From positions 1-18,101 of the forward strand of contig JAKSVZ010000015.1 in the NCBI GenBank assembly GCA_024407725.1: 18,101 bases of DNA, in the 5' to 3' direction. Below, in pieces: positions 3-15,713 of this stretch. The stretch comes from Opitutales bacterium (GTDB taxonomy: Bacteria > Verrucomicrobiota > Verrucomicrobiia > Opitutales > UBA9783). Both the position numbers and the translations under genes were made by a program. Within the stretch, counting starts at the first letter, position 1. Each line of letters opens with the position of its first letter. The notes beneath the pieces are model-generated. The model saw nothing but the letters and a program-made list of their open reading frames with translations, ran no database searches and had not been told where the DNA came from.

Positions 3-1145
3 TTCTCTCGCCGCAACATCCTGTATTTTCTTCTTTGTACGTTTTTGTTTTGGATGGTAGGTTCGTTGATGGTTTACGTCATAGATCCGTACCATATTTT
101 TCATGAAACGCGGTGGAATAAAAACCTATGGTTTGGTAACAAAACCTTAATCAACTTAGGTCAAATCGAAACCTACCTCAAAAGAAGTAATGATTACGAT
201 AGTATTCTGGTAGGTTCTTCGCACACGATGAACTTCAAAGGTACTGACCTAGCTAAAGCGGTAGGGGCTAAAGGGGTACTGAAGTTGTGTGGCGCTGGAA
301 TTAGTATGGATGAAATCGCTTGGTTATCGCAAGCGATGATAGCAACTTATAAGATTAAAAGTGTAATTTGTACCTGTGAGGATTTTAGTATGTTTCTGGG
401 TAACTGGTACCAATCGAACAAAACGTATATATCTTATCCCATCTTGTCGATGGTTTCTTTCACTTCCTTAGAAAGTACTTTTCAGTTGTTACGTCATAAA
501 GCCATACCTTCATCTAGTAACTTATGGATATGGGATAACCTAGATAATGTTCATAGTTGGTTTGGTTTATGGCGAGGGTTTAAAAAGGAAGATCATGATT
601 TTTGTTTAAAAGTTTTACATAGACTGATAACCGAAGTCAATTATCACGATTGTCATGTTGAATACCAGCCTAACGCTCCAATTGTTGCTCAATTTAATTC
701 GTCGTTATTTGCTTTGTTTCGTAATAACCCATCTGTAAAATTTTATGTGATTAGTCCGCCTTGGGCATGGTCAAATTTTTTACCTACCATGCATCATACA
801 CGTAGGACGGACTTATCGTATGTCTATAATTCTAGCTTTACTTTATGGCGCTACCTAGTTACCGCCTGTGCTGATCTTCCGAATGTCAAAATCTATGGTT
901 GGCACGATTGTCCGTTTGTAAGCAATCTAGCGAATTACTGCGATCATGCCCATTATCATCCGGATATCAACCGTTATATGGCGTGGTGCATTGAGCACGA
1001 TAAGCATCGGTTAACCAAAGAGAATTACGATGCATACGAAGCACGTTGTGTTGAAAACCTACGTGCATTTAAGATCCTAGATGCGTATCCTCATCGTGAT
1101 ACCTTTGATGAGTTGGTCGCCGCGGAAATGCAGGGTGGCAAGTAA
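3..1145 (+). CDS. Hypothetical membrane-anchored protein, 5' end probably just outside the window; weak hints of an SGNH/DltD-like esterase or acyltransferase fold
   Basis: Track ORF 45..1145 starts at a TTG. The same frame stays open to the window edge (FSRRNILYFLLCTF-L-FWMVGSLMVYV), giving an N-terminal hydrophobic helix. It has an LVGSSH motif and a C-terminal CDHAHYHPD (DxxH-like) motif. The C-terminus is rich in His, Cys and Trp. I do not recognise a family with confidence. Confidence 0.55.
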   Translation, partial: FSRRNILYFLLCTFLFWMVGSLMVYVIDPYHIFHETRWNKNLWFGNKTLINLGQIETYLKRSNDYDSILVGSSHTMNFKGTDLAKAVGAKGVLKLCGAGISMDEIAWLSQAMIATYKIKSVICTCEDFSMFLGNWYQSNKTYISYPILSMVSFTSLESTFQLLRHKAIPSSSNLWIWDNLDNVHSWFGLWRGFKKEDHDFCLKVLHRLITEVNYHDCHVEYQPNAPIVAQFNSSLFALFRNNPSVKFYVISPPWAWSNFLPTMHHTRRTDLSYVYNSSFTLWRYLVTACADLPNVKIYGWHDCPFVSNLANYCDHAHYHPDINRYMAWCIEHDKHRLTKENYDAYEARCVENLRAFKILDAYPHRDTFDELVAAEMQGGK

Positions 1146-1216
1146 ACAGTCGCTAACCTCTATTGGTTGTGTAAAAAATTGACGCTTTTAACAGGAAGCA
1201 TTACCCTAAAAGTGCT

Positions 1217-1522
1217 ATGTGTGATTGCAATTTAGGGAATGTAGGAAGCACGTTGGTGGGGCGAAAAGCTCCTGATTTTGCAGCGACAGCGGTGGTTAAT
1301 GGAGGCGAAATTGTTGAAAACTGGTCGCTGGGTCAATTTTTTGGTAAAAAATACATTGTATTGTTTTTTTATCCCAAAGATTTTACGTTTGTGTGTCCGA
1401 CGGAACTGCATGCGTTGCAGCATGTTGAGCAGTATGGTGAAGTGTGCCCCATTGATTGGCATAAAGGGGATCAGGCGATGACTCCGAATACCGATGGGCT
1501 CCATCGCTATTTTAGTAAATGA
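1217..1522 (+). pseudogene. 2-Cys peroxiredoxin (AhpC/Tsa family) remnant with a large in-frame internal deletion
   Basis: The N-terminal part is canonical Prx (LVGRKAPDF...[22 protein letters not shown], with the peroxidatic Cys). It joins directly to the canonical C-terminal tail ([25 protein letters not shown]...YFSK, with the resolving Cys). The product is 101 aa, whereas this family is typically about 195 aa. The central thioredoxin-fold core is missing. Confidence 0.75.
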
Positions 1523-3732
1523 CTGATCGGGATCAGCGGAATTTATTTTGTACTGAGGTTGGTCGAAACTTTTCAGTTATTGCACCCGCAGGGGTTGGAA
1601 AGACTACTGCGTTGGTCGATCGCATTGCCTGCCTAGCAAATCAGAACCCAGAGAAATTAACGCATTTATATGTGCTGTCTTATACGAATGAGGCGGCAGC
1701 GTCGTTAGAGCAGCGCGTTCGGAAGCGGATAGGTGGTAATTCCAACGCTCAATATCAGCTTGCTTGCCTTAAACAGGGTTTTTTTGGGACGATTCATAGC
1801 TTGTGTTTGAAGGTGATTGGGGCATTGGATCCAACCCCCTATGCGTTGTTGACGGATGAGGATGGTTTAAAGCATGCGTTCATGGAATCCCTCACAACGT
1901 CGGATCCGGATTTAGCTAAGTTTAACCATTTGTTTCGTTTTTGGGAGCTTCGGGAATTGATAACCGGTACCCATAATCGTTTTTTATCCTCAAAAGCCAA
2001 CGATCCATCCAGCGATTCCTTGGATTTAACGGTCGTTGAAGATTTGCTGAAGTATGAATGGCATAAAGCGCCTCAGCGGTCTCAAGCTGCGATTAAAAAA
2101 ACACTGGATGAAGTAGGCAATTGGTTAAAAGCCTATCGGCAAACAACCCAATCGATGGCTTACGTAGGACTGCCCCTCTGTCATTCGAGTTATAAGGACT
2201 TTAAACCCCTGTTTGATAATGCTTTTCGCCCCTTTTTGATTCGATTAGAAGCAGAGGCAGTAGCTTGCTGTCGCATCCTGTCGGAGCGTTATTTCCAATT
2301 TCGGAAAGCCCATGGGTATTTAAGCTATGATGATTACAGTGTGTGGGCGAACCGTTGCCTTCAAACTCAAAAAGCAAAGGAGTATTATGGTACGCAGCCG
2401 GTTAATATCTTGTTAGATGAGGCGCAGGATACGGATCCTTTGCAGTTTGAATTCTTGGAAACCTTCTGTTCCTTACACCCAGAGAGTCAATTTTCTATGG
2501 TTGGCGATCCGCAACAGTCGATTTACGATGAGCGGGCGGATGTAAAAAGTTATTTAGCCTATCATCAGCAATTAACTAGCTCCAAAGCATGCGAAGCGTT
2601 AACGTTTTCCTGTACCCATCGCTGTCCTCCGGCGCTCATCAACCCCCTCAACAAACGTTTTCCAAAGATTTTTGATGGAGCCAATAATGTGCCCTATGTA
2701 TCATTGGAAACGGATGTGAATGTTTCGGGTACGTTTAAGCCGATTGCTATGGATCCAGAGGTTAATGCTGAACATGCGACTCAACAGGAGGCTCAATGTA
2801 TTGAGAAGCTCTTACAGGGGCCATTAAAAGGCCATGCTTTATCCGATATCTGCTTGTTGGTTCCTCGGAAAGCTTGGCTGTACGAACTCAAGCAAGCGCT
2901 TGAATTGTTGGGGCGAAAGGTGCAGCTGCATTCTACCCAAGAAACAGGGCGCTATAATCCCCTTTTTTGTGCCTGCTTAACGCTTATTCATGGTATTCAT
3001 ACGCCGGAAGATACCTTTGAGTCGATGGGGCTCTTGCATACGGTGTTGCATTGTCCCGATTGTGATTTGGCGTATGAAGCACGGCAATCGGATAGGGTAC
3101 CCAACGAAACACGCAAGAAAATAGATAACGTGAAGGCATTGGTTCACGATTGCGCTGATTTGTCGCTTTGCGAGGGTCTAGAACGACTCATCGACACACT
3201 TAAGGAGCTTTGTCCGCCAAGCGACCACGATGCGTATTTTATCGATAAAATCTTTTCAGAAGCCTTTGAGGCGCAGCAACAGGGGCAATCATGGGCCAGC
3301 TTAGAACTGCGTTTGCGTTCCTTTTTGGATCAATCGATGGATGCAGGGGTTACGGTTGATCCCAATGCCTTACAGGGGTTCACCTATCACAAAGCAAAGG
3401 GATTGGAATGGGGAACGGTTATCTTGCCTTATTTTTATCGTCCGTACCGAGGGGCTAATAAAAGCTATCCGTACGTCCATCGCACGCATTGTATCTTAAA
3501 TTCATCGTTCGTGGATGCAGCATCCCCCCTCGTGGATGTGAAAGGGGATGAGAAGCGCAACCTACAACGGTTGTTGTACGTAGCCCTTACGCGAGCAAAA
3601 ACGAATTGTTTTTGGGTCAATGACGCACACGTTAAATGTGGGCGAGATGGAACGAGCGAGTGGAACGAAAGCCTATCCTTCGGTAGCCTTTGGGATGAGG
3701 GAACCCCCAAACAGAATGAGGGCGCAAGCTAG
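1519..3732 (+). CDS. Superfamily 1 UvrD/Rep/AddA-like DNA helicase with no C-terminal nuclease domain
   Basis: Motifs seen: Walker [10 protein letters not shown], Ia [65 protein letters not shown]. Only about 45 aa follow motif VI. The start ATG overlaps the upstream stop codon (ATGA at 1519-1522). Confidence 0.85.
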
Positions 3733-3735
3733 CGT

Positions 3736-5112
3736 TTATTTTTTCTTCATCCAATAAAGGGTACGCAGGCTTCCAGGAATAGCTTGCTTTGCCTCAATAG
3801 AAAAGAAGGATTCGAATGAACGTTCGAAGTGTTCCTGCGTGTATTCATCAAAAACATCCTTACGGTTGAGCAACATTTCTTGGATTTTGCTGTCTTCTTT
3901 CGGGATAAATTCAATGATGATGGCATTGAACAGATCGGCGAAATAGGAAGCCAATGCTCCAAAAGGAACGTTGTTTCCGATGGCCAAATGATGGATAAGC
4001 GCCAAGATAAGTCCGCAGTCGGCAGGACCGCGTTGATGCAACGCCAAACGTTCTTGATTAGCCCAACCGATTCCGCCGCTAGGATTGGTTAAATCGAGCT
4101 GTAACGGCAATAAGTTGGTTTCTTGCGTTTTTTTGATGGTTAGGTAATTTTTCTCAACCGCCAGTGGGTCGATATCAAAGGCAACCGTTGGAATACCCTT
4201 GGTGCTCGCCAATCGACTGAAATTTCCATTGTTGGCTCCTAAATCCCAGACGGTTTTAGGGTTGATGGTTTGCAAGAATTGGTCTACCAATTTGGTCTTT
4301 TCGTCAAAGCTGTGTTCGTTGTAATTCGTTGTGGCGTAGTAATTGCCCCACTCGGTAGGTGCTTTCTTAGGTTTGATACCCCCAATGGCCATTTGCAAAG
4401 CATCCATCAACTTGAGCATTTTTTCTTTCGGTAGCGTGCGTTGAACCTTTTTACGGTGCGCGGAATATTTTTGCGTCGCACTGTAGGGAAGCTTAACGTA
4501 CAGCCAATAATTGAGCGACAGCCATTTGCGGTTGGGCAACAGCGTATAAATAACATCCTCAGGAATACCATCAATCCACAGCCGTAACAGTTGATTCGCG
4601 CGCAAATCAACCATCTGCATGAGCATGAGCGGATACAGGAAATGGCGTAAGAATTGACCAAACGCAATCCATGGGTTGGGCTCAAACCGTTCAAACGATA
4701 GGGTGTCAATAAAGATCGGTTTTCCGTTTACAAATTGAATGTTGTACGCACTGGCGTCTTTTAATGAAAAGCCCCATTCCACCAACTGCTTTTGGAGGGC
4801 TAAGGTATGAAGGGCTGCGTCTTTCAATTGACTAAACGACCATTCGTAGGGATATGAGATGAAAGGGATTTTTTCTGCCTCTAAATCAATATGATCCTCG
4901 CCGTAATAAACTTCTTTGTGCGGAACCAGAAAGCCTTGTTCAATGAGCTTATCATAAACCCGTTCAGCTTTAAGCGCATCATAAGTTTCTTTGTAACAAG
5001 GGTTGATGCGTCGGTAAATGCGTCCGTTGGCGCTAAATACGAATCCACTAGGATCGCGAAAAGATCCGGTATTTTGTTGTTCATTCATGCTTGAGGAACT
5101 CATATCAGCCAT
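3736..5112 (-). CDS. Class I SAM-dependent methyltransferase with a large N-terminal domain of unknown function; substrate unknown
   Basis: 458-aa ORF. The C-terminal half has Rossmann methyltransferase motif I (VWDLGANNGNFSRLA), followed by the acidic post-I motif VAFDID. The N-terminal region of about 270 aa (FRDPSGFVF..., YPYEWSF) has no motif I can assign. The gene converges on the helicase gene with a 3-nt gap. Confidence 0.7.
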   Translation of the reverse strand: MADMSSSSMNEQQNTGSFRDPSGFVFSANGRIYRRINPCYKETYDALKAERVYDKLIEQGFLVPHKEVYYGEDHIDLEAEKIPFISYPYEWSFSQLKDAALHTLALQKQLVEWGFSLKDASAYNIQFVNGKPIFIDTLSFERFEPNPWIAFGQFLRHFLYPLMLMQMVDLRANQLLRLWIDGIPEDVIYTLLPNRKWLSLNYWLYVKLPYSATQKYSAHRKKVQRTLPKEKMLKLMDALQMAIGGIKPKKAPTEWGNYYATTNYNEHSFDEKTKLVDQFLQTINPKTVWDLGANNGNFSRLASTKGIPTVAFDIDPLAVEKNYLTIKKTQETNLLPLQLDLTNPSGGIGWANQERLALHQRGPADCGLILALIHHLAIGNNVPFGALASYFADLFNAIIIEFIPKEDSKIQEMLLNRKDVFDEYTQEHFERSFESFFSIEAKQAIPGSLRTLYWMKKK

Positions 5113-6773: not shown

Positions 6774-7388
6774 TTATTTAATAATGCTCTTTAAAAATTC
6801 TTTGGTTAAGTCTTTGGATGAAATAACTCTAGGGTTTGTGTTTAAATAAGGATTGGTGTTAATAACCTTAACTGTTTTATGATTGGATAATGCAAATTCC
6901 GTTTCTCTTGTTGAACTAGTAAATTTTTCAACTAGTAAGGCACTAATTACTTTTTGCTCGTAAGGTATCCAAAGATTTTGGTCACCCTATTTAAGGGTTA
7001 ATTTATCTTCAATGCCTTCTGTTGCTTTGTTTTTGTTTGAAACAACAGAAGCAGACTTTTTTATAATCAAATTTTTCAATAAGATGAAATCACAGGCAAC
7101 ATCTGCCATGATAAACCAAGCGGTGAGATTGGTAGGATCAATTAAATTGATAAGAATAATAAAATTATAAAATCTTTTTTGTTTCCCCTTAACAAAACCA
7201 GAACTAATTAAATAGTTTTTGACACGATCATAATCATGCAAGTGTAAATCCTTGGCTTCCTGAATCTTTTTTTGGAAATTAGTTAATTGATTGTTCGATA
7301 ATTTAAGCTGTACTATTGCTTTTAAAATGCTGTAAAAAAGCGAATTTGATTCGTAATCTGCGGTATCGATAGGGGATTGATCTTCCAT
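6774..7388 (-). pseudogene. 204-codon ORF interrupted by one in-frame TAG; candidate decayed restriction endonuclease partner of the adjacent C5 methyltransferase
   Basis: Track ORF 6987..7388 (133 aa) ends at a TAG (6987-6989). My translation of the next 70 codons in the same frame is open (GDQNLWIPYEQKVISALLVEKFTSSTRETEFALSNHKTVKVINTNPYLNTNPRVISSKDLTKEFLKSIIK) and runs to a TAA at 6774-6776. The gene is very A+T-rich, on the same strand as the methyltransferase and immediately downstream of it. Confidence 0.55.
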
Positions 7389-7463
7389 AGATACATTTTC
7401 TTAAATGGTATTTGCAGTTAGAGCAATGTTAACCACGTTTGGCACTATTGCCTATGTATGAAA

Positions 7464-8402
7464 TCAATCAATTTCTCCGCCCGTTTTTAAAGCGTCAATT
7501 AGATTATTAGCGACTGCCTCTATCATTTTTGTAGGAACTGAATTCCCAAATTGTTTATAGCATTGTACGTCGCTAACGACTAATTTAAAGTCATCGCCAA
7601 AACCTTGTAATCTTGCGGCTTCACGAGGAGTAAGTTTTCTAGGATTTCTATCTTGTTGTTCTACGAGTATTTCAGACCCATCTTTATAATATCGGGCTGA
7701 GATCGTGCTCGTATAAACGGAATGTTCATTAAATAAGCTGTACCCAAAACCATTTCCTTTAGCTTTGTGTTGCTCTTTTCTCCTTCGAAGGCTTGCCCAA
7801 ATCCTATCAGAAATCGTGTATTTAGGGTCAACATTGTTTTCTAATATATCTCCTAATTTTGTAGGAATGCCTGTTGGTTTAGGAAATTCAAATTCAATAT
7901 GATGATTCTTAAAGCCTACTAAAATAATTCTTTCTCTATTTTGAGGAACACCGAAATCTTTTGCGTTTAATACTTGATAATGTAATTGATATCCTAATTT
8001 ATTTTCGAGGATAGTTTTCATAACCTTAAAGGTATTACCTTTATCGTGGCTTAATAAACCTTTTACGTTTTCAAGCATAAAAGCTTTTGGTTTGTGATAT
8101 TCTAGGATTCTTTCTATCTCGAAAAACATCGTTCCTCGGGTGTCATTAAACCCTTTTCTTTTGCCAGCGATAGAAAACGCTTGGCAAGGAAAGCCGGCTA
8201 ATAGGATATCAAAGCTAGGGATGTCTTTTGCATCGATTTGTGTTATATCCCCACTAGGGATTTCTCCCCAGTTAGCCTTGTAAGTTTGAATGGCAAATTT
8301 ATCTATTTCAGAAGAAAAGACGCAGGTGCCTCCAAGTTTTTGATAAGGACGTCTAATGCCCCCAATACCAGCAAAAAGATCGATAAATTTAAACTTTGCC
8401 AT
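7464..8402 (-). CDS. DNA (cytosine-5)-methyltransferase, apparently intact
   Basis: All the conserved C5-methyltransferase motifs I looked for are present: I DLFAGIGG, IV GFPCQAFS, VI MLENVKG, VIII VPQNRERI, X QFGNSVP. The TRD contains KGNGFGY...SARYYKDGSEILV, which reminds me of CCGG-type (HpaII/MspI-like) methylases. I cannot verify that specificity. Confidence 0.92.
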   Translation of the reverse strand: MAKFKFIDLFAGIGGIRRPYQKLGGTCVFSSEIDKFAIQTYKANWGEIPSGDITQIDAKDIPSFDILLAGFPCQAFSIAGKRKGFNDTRGTMFFEIERILEYHKPKAFMLENVKGLLSHDKGNTFKVMKTILENKLGYQLHYQVLNAKDFGVPQNRERIILVGFKNHHIEFEFPKPTGIPTKLGDILENNVDPKYTISDRIWASLRRRKEQHKAKGNGFGYSLFNEHSVYTSTISARYYKDGSEILVEQQDRNPRKLTPREAARLQGFGDDFKLVVSDVQCYKQFGNSVPTKMIEAVANNLIDALKTGGEID

Positions 8403-8537: not shown

Positions 8538-8613
8538 TGGCAGGGAAAGTGGGATTCGAACCCACGACCTTCGGTTTAGAAAACCGTTGCTCTATCCACT
8601 GAGCTATTTCCCC
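8538..8613 (-). tRNA. tRNA-Arg (anticodon UCU), CCA encoded
   Basis: Hand-folded cloverleaf from the reverse complement: GGGGAAA-TA-GCTC-AGTGGATA-GAGC-A-ACGGT-TTTCTAA-ACCGA-AGGTC-GTGGG-TTCGAAT-CCCAC-TTTCCCT-G-CCA. It has a G1-U72 wobble and one 27-43 mismatch. Confidence 0.85.
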
Positions 8614-8631
8614 AGTTTACTAAACGAAAAA

Positions 8632-8706
<75 letters not shown>

Positions 8707-8720
8707 TTACAGTTGCTTTA

Positions 8721-8750
8721 ATTTAAGGAGAACCCACCGTAAGGCGTCAA
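8721..8750 (-). promoter_or_regulatory. Candidate promoter for the tRNA-Met/tRNA-Arg(UCU) unit
   Basis: On the minus strand: TTGACG (8750-8745), 18 nt spacer, TTAAAT (8726-8721). The -10 ends 14 nt upstream of the tRNA 5' end. Confidence 0.4.
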
Positions 8751-8822
8751 GTAAAATGCGAGGTAGGGACAATATAGAAAAAGTTTGCTTTATAGGTTGC
8801 TTTAACGCATATTAAAGATAGT

Positions 8823-8897
8823 GCCCTCATAGTTCAAGGGATAGAACCGCGGTTTCCTAAACCGTTAATCCCAGTTCGAGTCTGGGTGCGGGCGCCA
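8823..8897 (+). tRNA. tRNA-Arg (anticodon CCU), CCA encoded
   Basis: GCCCTCA-TA-GTTC-AAGGGATA-GAAC-C-GCGGT-TTCCTAA-ACCGT-TAAT-CCCAG-TTCGAGT-CTGGG-TGCGGGC-G-CCA. There is one U5-C68 mismatch in the acceptor stem. Confidence 0.85.
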
Positions 8898-8919: not shown

Positions 8920-9459
8920 GTGATGATTTTAAGAAGAAAGCTATTGGTTTTTTTGTGCTTCGGCCTTCTCCCGTTGATGTTGAAGGGGGTTGATCAGGCT
9001 CCTGTCCCAATGGTGATTGAAGATATCCATTGGGTGTATCGCAAGGATGACGATTTTAAAGGCATTGTTGAGGCGATTCGGGAGCAAGAAACCCAGCTTG
9101 ATCGCGTAATCGTTCGATCAGATGCGCACAAGCGGGAAGGGTTATACTTAATCATTAAATTCAACCGTTGGTTATCCACCATTCCGGAAGCCAGTAGGAT
9201 CCAAATCACCTTTATTATCAGCCCAGCTTTGGATGATCAAACGTGCGAACTTAGTTTGGAATACACGGGACATTTCATTTTCCCGCAAAACGAATTGTGG
9301 GTTGGGCTTACCGATGAAGCATTTTTAGGTCAATTGGATGATTCAGGGGTGCTGGAGCGCGTTAAAGAGCATCGCAAGGGTTATTTAACGGCTTGGCAAG
9401 CTCATGTCTTTGACCCAGATGGGAAGTGTATTGGGTACGGAGAAAGCTACGCTTGGTAA
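8920..9459 (+). CDS. Hypothetical secreted or periplasmic protein
   Basis: 179-aa ORF with an N-terminal signal-like segment (RRKLLVFLCFGLLPLMLKG). I recognise no catalytic motif. Its composition matches the backbone. Its stop lies 2 nt before the likely priA start. Confidence 0.6.
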   Translation: MMILRRKLLVFLCFGLLPLMLKGVDQAPVPMVIEDIHWVYRKDDDFKGIVEAIREQETQLDRVIVRSDAHKREGLYLIIKFNRWLSTIPEASRIQITFIISPALDDQTCELSLEYTGHFIFPQNELWVGLTDEAFLGQLDDSGVLERVKEHRKGYLTAWQAHVFDPDGKCIGYGESYAW

Positions 9460-9461
9460 GC

Positions 9462-11621
9462 ATGTTCTATTTGTCCATCTTGCCTATCCGTTCGTTGGCA
9501 CGCTCCTTAACGTATACAGCGGCAGAGCCTATTCCGGTAGGTAGTTTGGTAACCATTAGCATTAGGGGTCGCCGAGCGTATGGATTGGTAGAAGCTTGTG
9601 AGACCCAACCTCCCGCCGAACAACTGACGTTGTTGCCCATTGAACAACGCGTGTATGATTTCCCGATTGTAACCGCTGAAAACCTGCAGGTAATTCAATG
9701 GATCAGCCGCCGTTATGCCTGTCCGCTCAATTCGGTTTTAGAAAGTGCGCTGCCTGCTTTTATCCGCCAAGGGAAAGCGTTAACGCAAACGGCGTATTTA
9801 TGCCCCAATGAGGAACCGACAGCAGCCATTCCAAAGCGTGCGACCCATCAGCAGGCTGTGTATGATTGGGTCTGTCAGCATCCGTTTGCAGAAGAGCGAG
9901 CGCTTCATCAAGCGATTGCGAATGCCCATGCTGCGTTGCGTCAATTGATTGCGTCTCATAGGGTTCGGCGGGTCTTTGAGCGGCCACCGGAAGCGAAACC
10001 ATCGAACCCTATTACCTTAACGCAGGAACAGCAAGCGATTACGGATGCCCTAACGCGTGCCCTTCAGAGTCGAACCTATGCAACCCATTTACTCTATGGG
10101 GTAACTGGGTCAGGGAAAACGGAGCTTTACCATGCACTGATTGCGCAGGCAAGGCGTTTGGGGTTACAGACGCTCTATTTGGTTCCAGAAATTGCGTTGT
10201 CGGAACAAGCTCTATCCAAATTGCAGCAACGGTTGGCGTCGCAAGCCATTCGGGTGGGGGTATGGCATAGCTTAAGCACTGAAAAAGAAAAGAAAGCCCT
10301 TTGGCAGAAAGTGTTAACGGGTACGTGTGATGTGGTGTTGGGAACGCGTTCTGCTTTGTTTTTGCCTTTTAAACGTTTAGGGTTGATTTTGGTAGATGAG
10401 GAGCAGGATGCGTCGTATAAACAATCCGAGGTTCCGCGTTATCATGGGCGTGATTTAGCTATTTACCGAGCTCAACTGCATCAGGCGTTATGTGTGTTGG
10501 GGTCTGCTACGCCATCGATTGAAACTTGGCATCAGGTGAAAAAAGATGCCTATGCACTGCATACCTTATGGAAGCGCCCAAATCAGGCGAGCGTTCCAAC
10601 CATTCAGTTTGTGGATATGCACTACGAAAAACCGTCGTTTGAGGGGGCGTATGTGCTGTCGGATTTGTTGCGGCAAAAAATCAACGCGCGTTTGGATCGC
10701 AAAGAACAAACCTTGTTATTTTTGAACCGCCGAGGCTATGCGCCTTATCTGTATTGCCCTAAATGCGCACGACGGATTGAGTGTCCCTATTGCAAAAGCA
10801 CGCTGGTGTTTCATAAGGCGGATGCCAGCTTTCGGTGCCATGTGTGCCAACATCAGGTAACGGCCTATACCCATTGTGCCCATTGCCATAGCCCGTTGAA
10901 GTTAAGCAGGGGGTTAGGTACGCAACGGGTGGAAGCGGGTTTGAAAAAATTGTATCCAAATGTGCGGATTTTAAGGCTAGATACGGATAATCGGGAACAG
11001 CAGCCTCATTGGTATGAGGCGATTATGAGCCATCAATGCGATATCATCATTGGGACGCAGCTATTGGCCAAGGGAATGGACTTCCCAGATTTAACCTTGG
11101 TGGGGGTGTTGCAACTTGATACGCCGGCGCTCATAGAGGATTTTCGTGCATCTGAGCGTATTTTTCAATTGCTTGTGCAGGTTAGCGGGCGTGCAGGACG
11201 TTTGCGTTCCGGTAGCGAAGTGGTGGTTCAAACCTTTGCGCTCAATGACCCGTGTATCGATTTTGTAAAAAAACAGGATACCATCGGCTTTCTCAATCAA
11301 GAATGGGCGTTAAGGGAACGGTACCGCTATCCGCCGTTTCGCACCATGGTTCGTCATGTGTTTCGGAGTTTATCAGAACCCTTGGTGGATTATACCGTCA
11401 AGCAATGGAGTGCGTTTTTAGAGCAAAAAGCACCGGAAACGTGGGAAATTTTAGGTCCCTCTGCGCCCTTCATCAGCAAGGCTAACCGTTATTATCGGCG
11501 GCATCTGCTTTATCTGGGCGAGGACGATTTCGTGCCCCAATTGCAAGCCTTGCGGTCGGAATTTAAAACGCCGCCAGAGGTAATCGATTTGTTGGACGTA
11601 GATCCGGTTGATTTTCGTTAA
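9462..11621 (+). CDS. priA: Primosomal protein N' (replication restart helicase PriA)
   Basis: Walker A GVTGSGKTE, a DEEQD box, and the Cys-rich zinc-binding insert CPKCARRIECPYCKSTLVFHKADASFRCHVCQHQVTAYTHCAHCHS. The C-terminal helicase motifs are QLLAKGMDFPDLTLVGV and QVSGRAGR. I chose the ATG at 9462 (MFYLSILP...). The track start at 9426 would overlap the upstream gene. Confidence 0.9.
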   Translation: MFYLSILPIRSLARSLTYTAAEPIPVGSLVTISIRGRRAYGLVEACETQPPAEQLTLLPIEQRVYDFPIVTAENLQVIQWISRRYACPLNSVLESALPAFIRQGKALTQTAYLCPNEEPTAAIPKRATHQQAVYDWVCQHPFAEERALHQAIANAHAALRQLIASHRVRRVFERPPEAKPSNPITLTQEQQAITDALTRALQSRTYATHLLYGVTGSGKTELYHALIAQARRLGLQTLYLVPEIALSEQALSKLQQRLASQAIRVGVWHSLSTEKEKKALWQKVLTGTCDVVLGTRSALFLPFKRLGLILVDEEQDASYKQSEVPRYHGRDLAIYRAQLHQALCVLGSATPSIETWHQVKKDAYALHTLWKRPNQASVPTIQFVDMHYEKPSFEGAYVLSDLLRQKINARLDRKEQTLLFLNRRGYAPYLYCPKCARRIECPYCKSTLVFHKADASFRCHVCQHQVTAYTHCAHCHSPLKLSRGLGTQRVEAGLKKLYPNVRILRLDTDNREQQPHWYEAIMSHQCDIIIGTQLLAKGMDFPDLTLVGVLQLDTPALIEDFRASERIFQLLVQVSGRAGRLRSGSEVVVQTFALNDPCIDFVKKQDTIGFLNQEWALRERYRYPPFRTMVRHVFRSLSEPLVDYTVKQWSAFLEQKAPETWEILGPSAPFISKANRYYRRHLLYLGEDDFVPQLQALRSEFKTPPEVIDLLDVDPVDFR

Positions 11622-11661: not shown

Positions 11662-12966
11662 TTATTTGCCACCCTTCTTTCGATTGCAATTCCGGCAGAG
11701 CATTTGTAGGTTGTCGTAGGTTGTGCGTCCGCCCTTGCAAACAGGCTTTATGTGATCGCCTTCCATTTCATTAAAGGCAAACTCTTCGTGGCAATACGCG
11801 CATTTATGCTTTTGTTCTTTATACTTCCTCAGTTTGTCTTCTTGCTTAAAAGCACGAATTGTTAGGAGAGCCCCTGCTGCCTTAATATCATCCTCGTATT
11901 CATCCTGAGTGAGTTTGTTGTTTTTTAGTAGCTCGTCCAATCTGTACTTCTCCAAAAGATACTTATAGGCTTTTTTATCCTTAACCTCATTGCCATTGTC
12001 TTCTTTTAGATTGTTCCAAAGCTCTTCTAGGTCTTTTCTAACCTGTTTGGAGTCTAGCTTAGGAAGGTTATCTTTGTAGTCATTATAATATAGACCCCAT
12101 GGAAGACCTTTGGTAAGGTTTTGTTCGGCATCCTCTATGTCTATGACCCCAAAAATGGATCGTGCCCAATTTGCAACATTCTCAAAATACTGAATTAATT
12201 CATGAGCGTCTGCATCTTTTTGATGATCGTGCATATACTGTACTATTCTAGCATCAGCTTGCTCATTTTCTTGATATTTTTTGGCGCTTATCCAACCCAA
12301 TACCGTTTCTAAGTAATCTTGTCTAAGGGGATCTCCTTTTAAATAATATCCTCCTGCTTTATCGGCGGGATTATCTGTTTTTTTGATCGAAAAATAGCTT
12401 TTTGCGCTCGTTAACCACGAACCCGTATAAGAAGCGTTGCGAATTTCTTGCTCGGTCAAGCGTTCTCCTTGAATATTTGCAGTTTTAAACCACTTAATTT
12501 TTTCCTCTGCAGTTCCTTCTAATACATAAATCTGTAATTTATCATAATTCCTGATTTTATTTTGAGTCGTTGGATCTAATCCTGCGAATGACTTGGGGTT
12601 GGTTTTATTGGGGTTCTGTGGATCTTCTGGGATTTCAACAGAAAAATCACTTATATTTCCGTTTGCTGCTTTGCTTCCTATGACATAGGAACAAATAGAT
12701 AACATCCGTTGTTGCCCATCTAATAGTTCGTAAACGCTAGGCTCTTCATCGCTTTTAGCCCAATACATAGTACCAAGTGGTAAATCACCAAGGATAGTAT
12801 AAATGACAGCTTTTTGCTGTTCTAGCTTATAACAAAATTCTCGTTGATACTTCGGGCGGATTATTAATTTACCACCCAAAGCCCTAACCTCATCATTATT
12901 TGGGTCTTGCGTATATCCTTCGACTAAGTTTCTTATTGTAGTATCTTGTTTTAGTGTAGCTTTCAT
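11662..12966 (-). CDS. DUF262 (ParB/Srx-like, GmrSD N-terminal type) domain fused to a C-terminal HNH zinc-finger endonuclease
   Basis: DUF262 hallmarks are present: RPKYQREF near the N-terminus, DGQQR (encoded at 12706-12720) and WFKTANIQGERLTEQEIRNA. The last 48 aa or so form an HNH beta-beta-alpha-Me finger, CAYCHEEF...EGDHIKPVCKGGRTTYDNLQMLCRNCNRKKG (11665-11808). The start ATG overlaps the stop of the upstream methyltransferase (ATGA at 12963-12966). Confidence 0.85.
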   Translation of the reverse strand: MKATLKQDTTIRNLVEGYTQDPNNDEVRALGGKLIIRPKYQREFCYKLEQQKAVIYTILGDLPLGTMYWAKSDEEPSVYELLDGQQRMLSICSYVIGSKAANGNISDFSVEIPEDPQNPNKTNPKSFAGLDPTTQNKIRNYDKLQIYVLEGTAEEKIKWFKTANIQGERLTEQEIRNASYTGSWLTSAKSYFSIKKTDNPADKAGGYYLKGDPLRQDYLETVLGWISAKKYQENEQADARIVQYMHDHQKDADAHELIQYFENVANWARSIFGVIDIEDAEQNLTKGLPWGLYYNDYKDNLPKLDSKQVRKDLEELWNNLKEDNGNEVKDKKAYKYLLEKYRLDELLKNNKLTQDEYEDDIKAAGALLTIRAFKQEDKLRKYKEQKHKCAYCHEEFAFNEMEGDHIKPVCKGGRTTYDNLQMLCRNCNRKKGGK

Positions 12967-13664
12967 ACTTGCTTCTGGATTTGTTTTTTGTGGCGGATAA
13001 GGATACGGGCGTACGGTACAGTTACAATTCCGTCTTTCAGATAGTACAAATCTCCATCGACTGTGCCTCTTTTTTGTATTTCTTTGCGGTATTTTCGATG
13101 TTCGGGTTTATAAGGTTTTACCCCAATCGATAAACCTAAATTGGCGATTCCGAGCCCAATAATCTCGAACTGCTTTGGGCAATACTTTTTCAAAAAGGTA
13201 ATCGGTACGCCCATAACGCCGTCATAGCCGTACGGGATATCCTTTACCTTGCCGACCTCAATGGCGTCGTAATTATCGTACTTGGGGTACTTTTCAGGGG
13301 TATAAACGCAATTTTTGTTTAACCCATGTTCTTTAGTCCGCTTTTTATGGGGTAGGTTCGTGAACCAACAGACCCCTTTGTTTTTGACAAAGCCTTTAGC
13401 GGGATCGTATCCCTTTGAACGCACATATTTTGCGTTTTCCGGAAGAGTGTTTGGATACGCTGTTTTAAAAATCATTGTGCAATTAAACCCTTCCCCAACC
13501 CATAGCTTGTTGTCCTTAATCAGGGGAAAGATCTCTTTATAGGTAATGGCATTTAGATTGCCAATGATGAGGAACTTTTTGTTGTACGCTATGAGTTGAG
13601 CGACATACTCGCGAAACAACGAAAAGGGCGGATTAGTGACCACAATATCTGCTTCCTTTAGCAA
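12963..13664 (-). pseudogene. C-terminal catalytic fragment of an N6-adenine DNA methyltransferase (EcoRI-methylase-like family), separated from its N-terminus by a frameshift
   Basis: It contains catalytic motif IV, VVTNPPF (NPPF encoded at 13623-13634). The track M at 13664 is a TTG. The frame stays open upstream through the repeat (…FDSRERERE-YNQLPYSDLDESFKIPLKGNGDFRSDECIELLKEADIVVTNPPFSLFREY) and back to a TGA near 13850, with no ATG in that stretch. Confidence 0.8.
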
Positions 13665-13726
13665 CTCGATGCATTCGTCGCTACGGAAATCCCCATTACC
13701 TTTGAGGGGGATTTTAAAACTTTCGT

Positions 13727-14062
13727 CTAGATCAGAATAAGGGAGTTGGTTATACTCTCTCTCTCTCTCTCTAGAGTCAAAGCGTAGGACGGCTTGCCGG
13801 TTGGTTCGTAGTGCGTAGCAATGAGCTTTTTTAACCCTAAAGTGGGAAAATCATCCTTAAAATACTTCCAAAAATTGCTTTCATCCGGATCGTCACAATT
13901 TAAAAAGACGGTTTTATCTTTAAAATGCATATGATAATGCTTGAGTTCTTCGTTTATATCATTCATCTGCGTATAGAATTCATCATTCTTGGCATTTTTG
14001 GCTGCTATTAAGGCCGTGTTACGTTTAACATTTGACGTATCGTTATCCATGAAATGACTCAC
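13727..14062 (-). pseudogene. N-terminal fragment of the same N6-adenine DNA methyltransferase, terminated 9 codons after the repeat tract
   Basis: KNDEFYTQMNDINEELKHYHMHFKDKTVFLNCDDPDESNFWKYF...GLKKLIATHYEP matches the N-terminal signature I recall for the EcoRI-methylase-like family. The frame runs into (AG)9 (LERERE), then SITNSLILI and a stop. The start is a GTG at 14062 or an ATG at 14050, only 4-16 nt from the tRNA-His 3' end. Confidence 0.8.
13755..13772. repeat. Perfect dinucleotide simple sequence repeat, (CT)9 on the plus strand and (AG)9 on the coding strand
   Basis: Read directly: ata-ctctctctctctctctct-agag. It lies inside the methyltransferase coding sequence, exactly where the reading frame breaks. 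Confidence 0.97.
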
Positions 14063-14066
14063 TTTA

Positions 14067-14143
14067 TGGGGTGGTAGACCGGGCTTGAACCGGCAACCCT
14101 CGGAACCACAATCCGATGCTCTGCCAATTGAGCTACAACCACC
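14067..14143 (-). tRNA. tRNA-His (anticodon GUG) with the extra 5' G(-1), CCA encoded
   Basis: Reverse complement: G-GTGGTTG-TA-GCTC-AATTGGC-AGAGC-A-TCGGA-TTGTGGT-TCCGA-GGGTT-GCCGG-TTCAAGC-CCGGT-CTACCAC-C-CCA. G(-1) pairs with C73, which is the His hallmark. Confidence 0.9.
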
Positions 14144-14352: not shown

Positions 14353-14437
14353 GCTGAAGTGGTGGAATTGGCAGACACGCATGATTCAGGTTCATGTGCT
14401 TCACGGCATGGGGGTTCAAGTCCCCCCTCCAGCACCA
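14353..14437 (+). tRNA. tRNA-Leu (anticodon CAG), long variable arm, CCA encoded
   Basis: GCTGAAG-TGGTGGAATTGGCAGACACG-CATGA-TTCAGGT-TCATG-TGCTTCACGGCAT-GGGGG-TTCAAGT-CCCCC-CTCCAGC-A-CCA. This is a class II tRNA of 85 nt. Confidence 0.9.
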
Positions 14438-14486
14438 AAACGAGCGCTGTATCGATGGGTTCACGGATAAAAGGTTAGAGGTGAAA

Positions 14487-15713
14487 ATGATGAAGTACCC
14501 GTGGAAGCGTTTAGGATTCTATGGATTAGCGATGATGGGTGGGGTGTGTGCCGGCTTATCATCCAGCGAATGGCTGTTTACCCTTGCTCATTTTTGCTCG
14601 GAAGCTTTTATTCGTCTGTTTCGCTGCGTAAGCTTACCTATTATTTCGTTGTCGCTGATTGTTGCCCTATCGCGGTATGGAGGGAATCGTTCGCTCAATG
14701 CTGTTTGGAAACGAACCTTGATGTATACGCTTACGACCACGTTGTTGGCGGTTACGGTCAGCGCTATCCTCTATTATCTGATTGCCCCCGAACGGGTTCA
14801 AGTGCTTACGGCTGATACCCCTGTACGAACGTTAGTTGCCGGTAGTTATCTCCAATACCTGCTGCAGATTATTCCCGATAACGCTTTGGGGATTTTTATC
14901 GAGCATCAGGTGTTGGCAGTGTTGGTGCTGAGTTTTATGGTTGGAATGGCGATTCGCGGAATTCCAGACCCACTGGTACGTACCCACATCCAGCGGTTGT
15001 TTGAAGGACTTCACAGCATTTTATCGACGATTATCCGCTACATCATTGCAGGATTACCCCTAGGATTGTTTGGGTTTATCGGCGTGGGTATTCGCGGAAT
15101 GAATGCATCGGTAGCGCTGCAAGGCATGGGCGCTTACTGTTTGGTGATTGTTTTGGCTAATATTCTTCAAGGAACCTTGGTACTGCCTTTGTTTTTGCTG
15201 TGGAAGCATCAAAATCCCTTGCGTGTTTTTAAAAAAATGCTGCCGGCGCTTTCCGTTGCTTTTTTCACCAAATCTTCCGTGGGTACCTTGCCGATTACCT
15301 TGCAGCAGGTAGAGCATAAACTGGGGGTAAAGCCGCAGGTGGGGCAATTCGTATTGCCGTTATGCACAACGATCAACATGAACGGCTGCGGGGCATTCAT
15401 CTTTACCACCGTGTTGTATGTGATGCACAATCAGGGCATTGAAATTACCGCGGGTACCATGCTTGCCTGGATTTTTATTGCCACCTTGGCAGCGATTGGA
15501 AACGCAGGAGTACCGATGGGTTGTTTTTTCTTAAGCGCTAGCCTGCTTTCGTCGATGAACGTTCCTGTGGAATTGATGGGGATGATTTTACCGATTTATA
15601 GCGTAATCGATATGCTAGAAACCGCGTTGAACGTATGGTCCGATTCGTGTGTGACAGTGGCCGTTAATCACGATATGCAGATGAATCCGAACGCTTGTTT
15701 GAACGACCTCTAG
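14487..15713 (+). CDS. Dicarboxylate/amino acid:cation symporter (DAACS family, GltP/GltT/SstT-like)
   Basis: Polytopic membrane protein with the family motif FFTKSSVGTLPIT and the TTINMNGCGAF and NAGVPMG segments. I chose the start at ATG 14487 (MMKYPW...), preceded by GAGGTG. The track start at 14394 lies inside tRNA-Leu. Confidence 0.85.
   Translation: MMKYPWKRLGFYGLAMMGGVCAGLSSSEWLFTLAHFCSEAFIRLFRCVSLPIISLSLIVALSRYGGNRSLNAVWKRTLMYTLTTTLLAVTVSAILYYLIAPERVQVLTADTPVRTLVAGSYLQYLLQIIPDNALGIFIEHQVLAVLVLSFMVGMAIRGIPDPLVRTHIQRLFEGLHSILSTIIRYIIAGLPLGLFGFIGVGIRGMNASVALQGMGAYCLVIVLANILQGTLVLPLFLLWKHQNPLRVFKKMLPALSVAFFTKSSVGTLPITLQQVEHKLGVKPQVGQFVLPLCTTINMNGCGAFIFTTVLYVMHNQGIEITAGTMLAWIFIATLAAIGNAGVPMGCFFLSASLLSSMNVPVELMGMILPIYSVIDMLETALNVWSDSCVTVAVNHDMQMNPNACLNDL

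Follow-up and report, generated by a model that had tools for sequence, protein, structure and literature searches.

The subject of this study is a pair of adjacent minus-strand genes in an 18,101-nt stretch of DNA from an Opitutales bacterium (contig JAKSVZ010000015.1, assembly GCA_024407725.1); the whole of this stretch is called the window below. One gene, here named R (11662–12966), encodes a protein in which a DUF262 domain is followed by a helical region and a C-terminal HNH endonuclease domain. The other, here named M, encodes an EcoRI-family N6-adenine DNA methyltransferase and lies directly upstream of R. R is probably the endonuclease gene of a mobile two-gene restriction-modification (R-M) module with the order M then R, and the module is probably in an OFF phase here. 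The architecture of R itself matters little: it is common, it is named in the NCBI annotation, and it is covered by a restriction-enzyme profile. More surprising are the apparent switch in M, a tract of nine AG units, and the tracts of relatives from the human gut, in which alternative reading frames rebuild the C-terminus of the methylase.

A frameshifting AG tract in the methyltransferase gene

The M gene (12963–14050, minus strand) is frameshifted, a state that was missed by an initial annotation of this DNA. Its likely start is the ATG at 14050, 17 nt after a tRNA-His gene, and it is split over two open reading frames (ORFs), 13727–14062 and 12963–13664, both on the minus strand. The two pieces match the Pfam family PF13651 (EcoRI_methylase) with E-values of 3.1e-34 (profile positions 2–82) and 4.7e-77 (profile positions 135–345). 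M is put out of frame by an (AG)9 tract at 13755–13772 on the minus strand, which reads (CT)9 on the plus strand. This tract is perfect over 18 nt, is the sole dinucleotide tract of at least six units in the 18-kb window, and lies in a linker of M that is variable and separates two conserved blocks. With nine units, M ends after 111 amino acids (aa), and both wrong frames run into a stop immediately. The NPPF catalytic motif of M (13623–13634, minus strand) lies downstream of the frameshift, so translation from the M start does not include it in this allele.

In a reconstruction, (AG)8 or (AG)11 fuses the two ORFs into an intact 365-aa enzyme, while 9, 10, 7 or 6 units leave them out of frame. 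The repaired M, with its NPPF motif and C-terminal Y-x-R-I-L-I-R strand, aligns end to end with M.EcoRI and other members of the family and is 46.7% identical to M.EcoRI over aa 15–317. No lesion besides the repeat-unit count was found in either M or R. Furthermore, an independent Logan assembly of SRR17543914, 100% identical to the window over 5276 nt, also has nine units, and the tract is therefore not a quirk of one assembler. (AG)9 looks like a contingency locus, and the module looks phase-variable.

The stop codon of M and the start codon of R overlap in an ATGA at 12963–12966 (minus strand), which implies translational coupling of the two genes. A search for a promoter or terminator proper to R gave nothing convincing, promoter-like sites being fewer than in shuffled sequences, and no recognisable Shine-Dalgarno-like signal precedes the R start.

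Domains and conserved residues of the endonuclease

R has an ATG start and encodes 434 aa. It corresponds to NCBI MCQ2956192.1, a “DUF262 domain-containing protein” from an Opitutales bacterium metagenome-assembled genome (MAG), GCA_024500545.1. The initial annotation had described it as a DUF262 domain joined through a helical region of about 200 aa to an HNH finger at the extreme C-terminus, and profile searches bear this out. The N-terminal domain, GmrSD_N (PF03235, formerly DUF262) of the ParB/Srx fold, covers aa 35–180 (12427–12864, minus strand; Pfam E = 1.2e-19, 71.7 bits against a cut-off of 33.2). The helical region of about 200 aa covers aa 183–385 (11812–12420, minus strand) and lies between DUF262 and HNH. 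The zinc-finger HNH nuclease domain, with the pattern CxxC...DH...N...CxxCN, covers aa 389–432 (11671–11802, minus strand) and matches PF01844 with E = 3.7e-15; HNH_5 also matches the C-terminus, with E = 2.6e-12. Neither DUF1524 (PF07510) nor ParBc (PF02195) matches the R protein at E ≤ 0.1 in Pfam. The C-terminus is thus a canonical zinc HNH and not DUF1524, as had been claimed at first, and identity with an ordinary GmrSD enzyme is rejected on the same grounds.

A family alignment of 21 sequences, made of the window R and 20 homologues, contains every motif that had been quoted for the protein, and R retains all of the family-invariant residues. Within the N-terminal DUF262 motif RPKYQREF (aa 37–44; 12835–12858, minus strand), R37, P38, Q41, R42 and F44 are invariant. 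DGQQR (aa 83–87; 12706–12720, minus strand), the predicted gamma-phosphate and hydrolysis site, is invariant as well, and so are N164-x2-G167-x2-L170-x3-E174 and the HNH motif C389-x2-C392 ... D404-H405 ... N419 ... C424-x2-C427-N428. The residues D404, H405, N419 and N428 align with D53, H54, N68 and N77 of the Gme HNH nicking endonuclease 4H9D, and the roles of the HNH residues of 4H9D have been summarised (PMC4619093). RPKYQREF is the presumed counterpart of the BrxU motif region implicated in nucleotide binding.

Relative to the family, R carries three insertions, at about aa 97–125, 275–283 and 345–365. The first is a lineage-specific beta-hairpin within the DUF262 domain. The first part of the helical region, to about aa 274–319, is common to NsnA and PD-T4-2_A, other DUF262 proteins in PADLOC, and the remainder is a variable helical linker bearing the two other lineage-specific insertions. 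In other DUF262 proteins, the region after DUF262 is the DNA-binding “ParBDB” or SspE-M domain (PMC12065111); by analogy, the first part of the helical region of R is probably the counterpart of “ParBDB”.

An AlphaFold model of R computed from the family alignment (predicted local distance difference test, 81.7; predicted template-modelling score, 0.65) is composed of an alpha/beta N-terminal domain, helices at about aa 153–384 and a C-terminal beta-beta-alpha finger, as assigned by DSSP. The finger is modelled with strands at 401–405 and 420–424 and a helix at 425–432. In Foldseek searches with this model, the top whole-chain match in the PDB is BrxU (7p9k_A; E = 2e-4, probability 0.98), and the HNH finger matches 4H9D, the Cas9 HNH domain, McrA and endonuclease VII. 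The match to SspE (6JIV) is weak, with E = 0.08. By sequence, PDB matches are limited to the HNH finger, and no solved structure of a close R relative was found.

A large family with generic names

The initial annotation had called this architecture unusual, and the size of the family contradicts it. A search of 5.8 billion proteins yielded more than 3500 homologues of R at E ≤ 1e-5. The pair PF03235 and PF01844 is present in all of the best 120, which are typically 360–365 aa long and 40–45% identical to R. Among 50%-identity representatives, scanned exhaustively, 206 clusters reach E ≤ 1e-30 and 798 reach E ≤ 1e-10. The source databases give the homologues generic names only, either “DUF262 domain-containing protein” or “HNH endonuclease family protein”.

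The PADLOC-DB profile PDLC03418, “REase_II” (372 positions), matches R in two stretches with E = 1e-72, and in the best of these aa 10–339 of R correspond to profile positions 9–300 of 372. PADLOC-DB therefore already lists the R family under the Type II restriction enzymes. Because of its three insertions, the window R exceeds the profile and the typical members in length by about 70 aa. Weaker PADLOC matches were obtained with NsnA (2.9e-25, aa 32–274) and PD-T4-2_A (5.7e-14, aa 32–319). The enzymes that seeded the REase_II profile could not be traced, and no biochemical study of a DUF262-PF01844 enzyme with an EcoRI-family methyltransferase as its partner came up in the literature search. 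The proposed novelty had been made dependent on whether this fusion is already a characterised enzyme class in REBASE. The REase_II match comes close to that; a biochemically characterised member was not confirmed, and none was identified in REBASE from the literature and the cluster names. The DUF262-HNH architecture is thus common, catalogued and biochemically uncharacterised, and the window R is one more member.

Methyltransferase and endonuclease genes are paired across relatives

The neighbourhoods of R relatives were surveyed in 80 metagenomic loci, retrieved with the family alignment, together with two plasmid loci and one genome locus. Four of them have no room upstream of R and were left out, which leaves 79. 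In 77 of these 79, an EcoRI-family N6-adenine methyltransferase is encoded directly upstream on the same strand, so that the “hard-wired” association with a methyltransferase gene, first noticed in the window, turns out to be general. Of the 77 pairs, 32 have overlapping M stop and R start codons (17 of them through a 4-nt ATGA), and another 30 have a gap of 0–30 nt between the two. The two genes thus overlap or lie within 30 nt in 62/77 loci.

The pair also travels on mobile elements. Annotated M and R pairs are found on plasmids of Aeromonas, Variovorax, Gordonia, Sulfitobacter, Mammaliicoccus, Pediococcus, Microbacterium, Dietzia and Arthrobacter, and Flavobacterium phage vB_FspS_laban6-1 carries one as an opposite-strand insert (moron). 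Among plasmid records, 77 have a homologue of the EcoRI-family methyltransferase, and about 44 of these also have a full-length DUF262-HNH gene. The M-to-R coupling is near-obligate across phyla, plasmids and a phage.

One plasmid locus has a different arrangement. In Enterococcus dispar plasmid pK205-4b-C (positions 61–4699 of the locus, L002), M and R are 2.6 kb apart, and optrA, a gene for oxazolidinone/phenicol resistance, lies between them. The optrA segment looks like an insertion that split the M-R operon.

A homologous pair in the same order is located on plasmid pDSM14862_g of Sulfitobacter indolifex (positions 2480–4632 of L086). This gene pair has been proposed independently as an R-M system, and in the strain GAATTC is unmethylated and there is a strain-specific N6-methyladenine (m6A) motif, GGCATC, which is absent from REBASE (PMC9025767). 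The Sulfitobacter homologue being inactive on GAATTC, the family seems to differ in specificity. If GGCATC stems from the M homologue of S. indolifex, the family includes asymmetric targets.

Repeat tracts in related loci

Simple repeats are not confined to the window M. In a human-gut lineage of the family, (AG)n tracts are located near the 3′ end of M in five loci: L027 (3722–3991; n = 26), L029 (2864–3091; n = 5), L031 (1687–1926; n = 11), L064 (1243–1493; n = 24) and L082 (3756–3925; n = 13). The loci with 5, 11 and 26 units are mutually 98–100% identical; L064, about 76% identical, and L082 are more distant. L027 and L029 have 26 and 5 AG units, respectively, and are 100% identical elsewhere. 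Since these gut loci differ solely in (AG)n, tract length does vary in relatives of the M-R module.

The gut tracts have a further peculiarity. The tract reads (Arg-Glu)n in each frame, and the reading frames that follow it re-encode the C-terminal motif of M, Y-x-R-[ILV]-x-[IV]-R: three frames do so in L027, L029, L031 and L064, and two in L082. With (Arg-Glu)n in each frame and the re-encoded C-termini, the gut methylase therefore appears to be frameshift-proof. What changes with the frame is the distance from the M stop to the R start, which is 152, 78 or 10 nt in L027. We know of no described precedent for a methylase C-terminus re-encoded in alternative frames behind an (AG)n tract.

Other simple repeats are found at the edges of the module: G10 just 5′ of M in L007 (2749–2758), G9 at the M-R junction in L071 (3814–3822), and (GGCTT)11 upstream of M in L006 (2709–2763). 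The distribution of repeats suggests that repeat-mediated switching arose several times in the M-R family.

A working model and its alternatives

In the model that we favour, of an M-R module that is OFF in this genome, M would methylate adenine in a short target on the host DNA. R would bind DNA via its DUF262 and helical module and cut unmarked DNA with its HNH site. An HNH site on its own cuts one strand, and R is therefore expected to work as a dimer. Binding and hydrolysis of a nucleoside triphosphate (NTP) at DGQQR would license the cleavage, as in BrxU, GmrSD and SspE. In BrxU, the substitutions Q101A and R102A, at the equivalents of Q86 and R87 of R, abolish NTP hydrolysis and defence, and hydrolysis must precede cleavage (PMC8565348). 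Since DGQQR is invariant in the family and required in BrxU, nucleotide gating of R is a reasonable expectation; argued from this analogy, the chances of NTP-licensed cleavage by R are about even.

As to expression, M would be OFF here, and slippage by −1 or +2 AG units would switch both genes back on. Translation of R should fall when translation of M ends about 760 nt upstream, thus avoiding self-restriction, because the R start lies inside the M stop and R is preceded by no recognisable promoter or Shine-Dalgarno signal of its own. With such a coupled drop in R, an intact R would therefore be tolerated despite the broken M.

Several observations weigh against this model. R is intact while M is broken, a state that a classical R-M system would be expected not to tolerate unless R is silent. 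Length variation of the window (AG)9 was not seen in the two assemblies, which are apparently of one sample. GAATTC, the site of M.EcoRI, is not avoided in the window, where six copies are found against 7.0 expected. Two R relatives, in L065 (2127–3230) and L076 (1756–2859), have upstream room but no methyltransferase nearby. The likeness of R to BrxU is at the domain level only (TM-score 0.23 in Foldseek), and a sequence search of the R N-terminal domain against the PDB found nothing. Finally, the literature yields no demonstration of DNA cleavage, of a block by methylation or of NTP use for any member of the family.

The solitary R genes of L065 and L076 are unexplained if R is a classical restriction enzyme. 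Near the former lie T5orf172, NYN and YchF genes, and near the latter a RuvB-like gene.

The alternative that survives best is that the module is a decaying remnant, in which (AG)9 is a fixed inactivating mutation, M a pseudogene, and R silent, inactive or being lost; the identities of the genes would be unchanged. The truncation of M to 111 aa with immediate stops in both wrong frames fits a remnant, as does the presence of (AG)9 in both assemblies with no heterogeneity seen, and plain decay does occur elsewhere in the family, L007 having an in-frame stop in R and L064 an extra frameshift in M. However, a perfect 18-nt dinucleotide tract in a coding region, unique in the 18-kb window, is a classic substrate of reversible slippage, one unit fewer restores the whole 365-aa M with no further lesion in either gene, and relatives of the module are polymorphic in (AG)n length. 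Decay is unlikely beside the phase-variable module.

Far less probable is the idea, raised in the initial annotation, that R is a ParB-like nucleotide-closed clamp, which would load at a site and slide along DNA before the HNH domain cuts. The N-terminal domain is of the ParB/Srx fold with an arginine-containing NTP motif, and the succession of DUF262 and a DNA-binding domain mirrors the layout of ParB (PMC12065111). The searches do not back it: there is no ParBc match in Pfam, and Foldseek matches of the R model to CTP-bound ParB and Noc are weak (E 0.2–2.7, probability ≤0.35). Moreover, the only DUF262 nuclease with mechanistic data, BrxU, undergoes NTP-driven dissociation from dimer to monomer and not clamp closure (PMC8565348), and the sequence of R holds nothing bearing on sliding.

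Least probable of all is that R is a Type IV enzyme of the GmrSD kind, directed against modified foreign DNA and without a protective partner in the adjacent M. In its favour, modification dependence is known for the characterised DUF262 nucleases GmrSD and BrxU, host phosphorothioate marks are sensed by SspE, R is intact here without a functional M, and two relatives are solitary. Against it, the M-to-R synteny in 77/79 loci with coupled stop and start across phyla, plasmids and phage is what a protective partner predicts, an m6A-triggered enzyme next to an m6A methyltransferase would be suicidal, the GmrSD-defining DUF1524 is absent, and the matching PADLOC profile is REase_II and not a Type IV model.

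Relation to known systems

Among known nucleases, GmrSD and BrxU share with R an N-terminal DUF262 domain of the ParB/Srx fold with DGQQR, a helical middle, and a C-terminal His-Me finger with DH...N...N. They differ from R in three respects: their nuclease is DUF1524, in place of the compact zinc HNH of PF01844; they are about 590 aa long, against 360–434 aa in the R family; and they are stand-alone, modification-dependent enzymes, whereas R is almost always located directly behind a methyltransferase gene. SspE of the SspABCD-SspE system is also like R in having a DUF262 NTPase, a DNA-binding middle and a His-Me nuclease, and in working with a modification of host DNA. This modification, however, is a phosphorothioate made by four proteins, whereas the partner of R makes m6A and is a single EcoRI-family enzyme. 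The nuclease of SspE is a DUF1524 domain that nicks, and that of R is a PF01844 HNH. Menshen NsnA and PD-T4-2 protein A resemble R in DUF262 and the helical region that follows it, but neither contains a nuclease, and both act together with separate ATPase and effector genes, of which there are none next to R. The ParB CTPase clamps combine a ParBc N-domain (PF02195), which bears GERRxR-type CTP motifs, with a centromere-binding helix-turn-helix, and R is set apart from them by the lack of a match to PF02195 at E ≤ 0.1. In contrast, R has what is expected of the PF01844 His-Me finger nucleases: the beta-beta-alpha-metal fold, as judged from the model, the catalytic DH, the structural and metal-binding N residues, and the CxxC...CxxC zinc site.

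In comparison with the EcoRI system, M.EcoRI and the window M both belong to PF13651, whereas R.EcoRI is a PD-(D/E)XK enzyme unrelated to the window R, and the gene order is R then M in EcoRI (Escherichia coli plasmid pU90-3) but M then R in the window. By its gene organisation, with separate adjacent R and M genes, and by the PADLOC match of R to a profile listed as Type II, the window module goes with the Type II R-M systems. Orthodox Type II enzymes cut sequence-specifically at or close to their site, are blocked by the cognate methylation and need only Mg2+, and the conserved NTP motif suggests, by analogy, that R may depart from them on the last point. A need for a nucleotide cofactor, if true, would set R apart from the orthodox Type II enzymes.

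Phase-variable R-M systems with simple repeats are known as phasevarions, and AG repeats are found in hpyAVIBM of Helicobacter pylori. As in these, a dinucleotide tract lies in the methyltransferase ORF of the window and the number of units sets the frame. In the well-studied cases, the switching gene is for the most part a Type III mod or Type I hsd gene from a host-adapted pathogen. The window M, in contrast, is a Type II-like gene in an environmental Opitutales MAG, and its switching was not observed directly. With their (AG)n tracts, these modules offer a case outside pathogens in which phase-variable Type II-like restriction can be tested.

Tentatively, the combination of an EcoRI-type M with a DUF262-HNH enzyme may represent a distinct class of R-M system, in which a sensor-nuclease of the GmrSD type, driven by NTP, has been converted so that methylation blocks it and does not trigger it. 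Such a class would need a nucleotide cofactor, and slippage of (AG)n within the methylase gene would set its expression; in the relatives with a three-frame C-terminus, slippage would alter the coupling of R without loss of protection. We regard this as possible, though less likely than the module itself. In the R family, a nucleotide-driven sensor as known from Type IV enzymes (GmrSD, BrxU, SspE) is combined with a classical protective methyltransferase. If cleavage in this family is both NTP-dependent and methylation-blocked, it would connect two classes of restriction that have been treated separately. The family could also yield new sequence-specific HNH cutters.

Genomic setting and other features of the window

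M and R together form an insert of about 2.4 kb with a low G+C content, 37–43% against 47–49% in the flanks. One border is the gene for tRNA-His(GTG) (14067–14142, minus strand), directly upstream of M, and the other is the 3′ end of priA (9426–11621, plus strand). Neither an integrase nor flanking direct repeats were found around the insert.

A second low-G+C insert (31–35%) is present at 6987–8402 on the minus strand and adjoins tRNA genes at 8538–8897. It encodes a C5-cytosine DNA methyltransferase (7464–8402; PF00145, E = 1e-105; MTase_II in PADLOC), which is followed by a 133-aa ORF (6987–7388) with no Pfam or PADLOC match. This ORF is possibly the restriction partner of the C5-cytosine methyltransferase. 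Elsewhere in the window, the mechanically assigned start of a sodium:dicarboxylate symporter ORF (14394–15713) overlaps the gene for tRNA-Leu(CAG) at 14353–14437; translation probably begins at the Met-Met further downstream, at about 14484.

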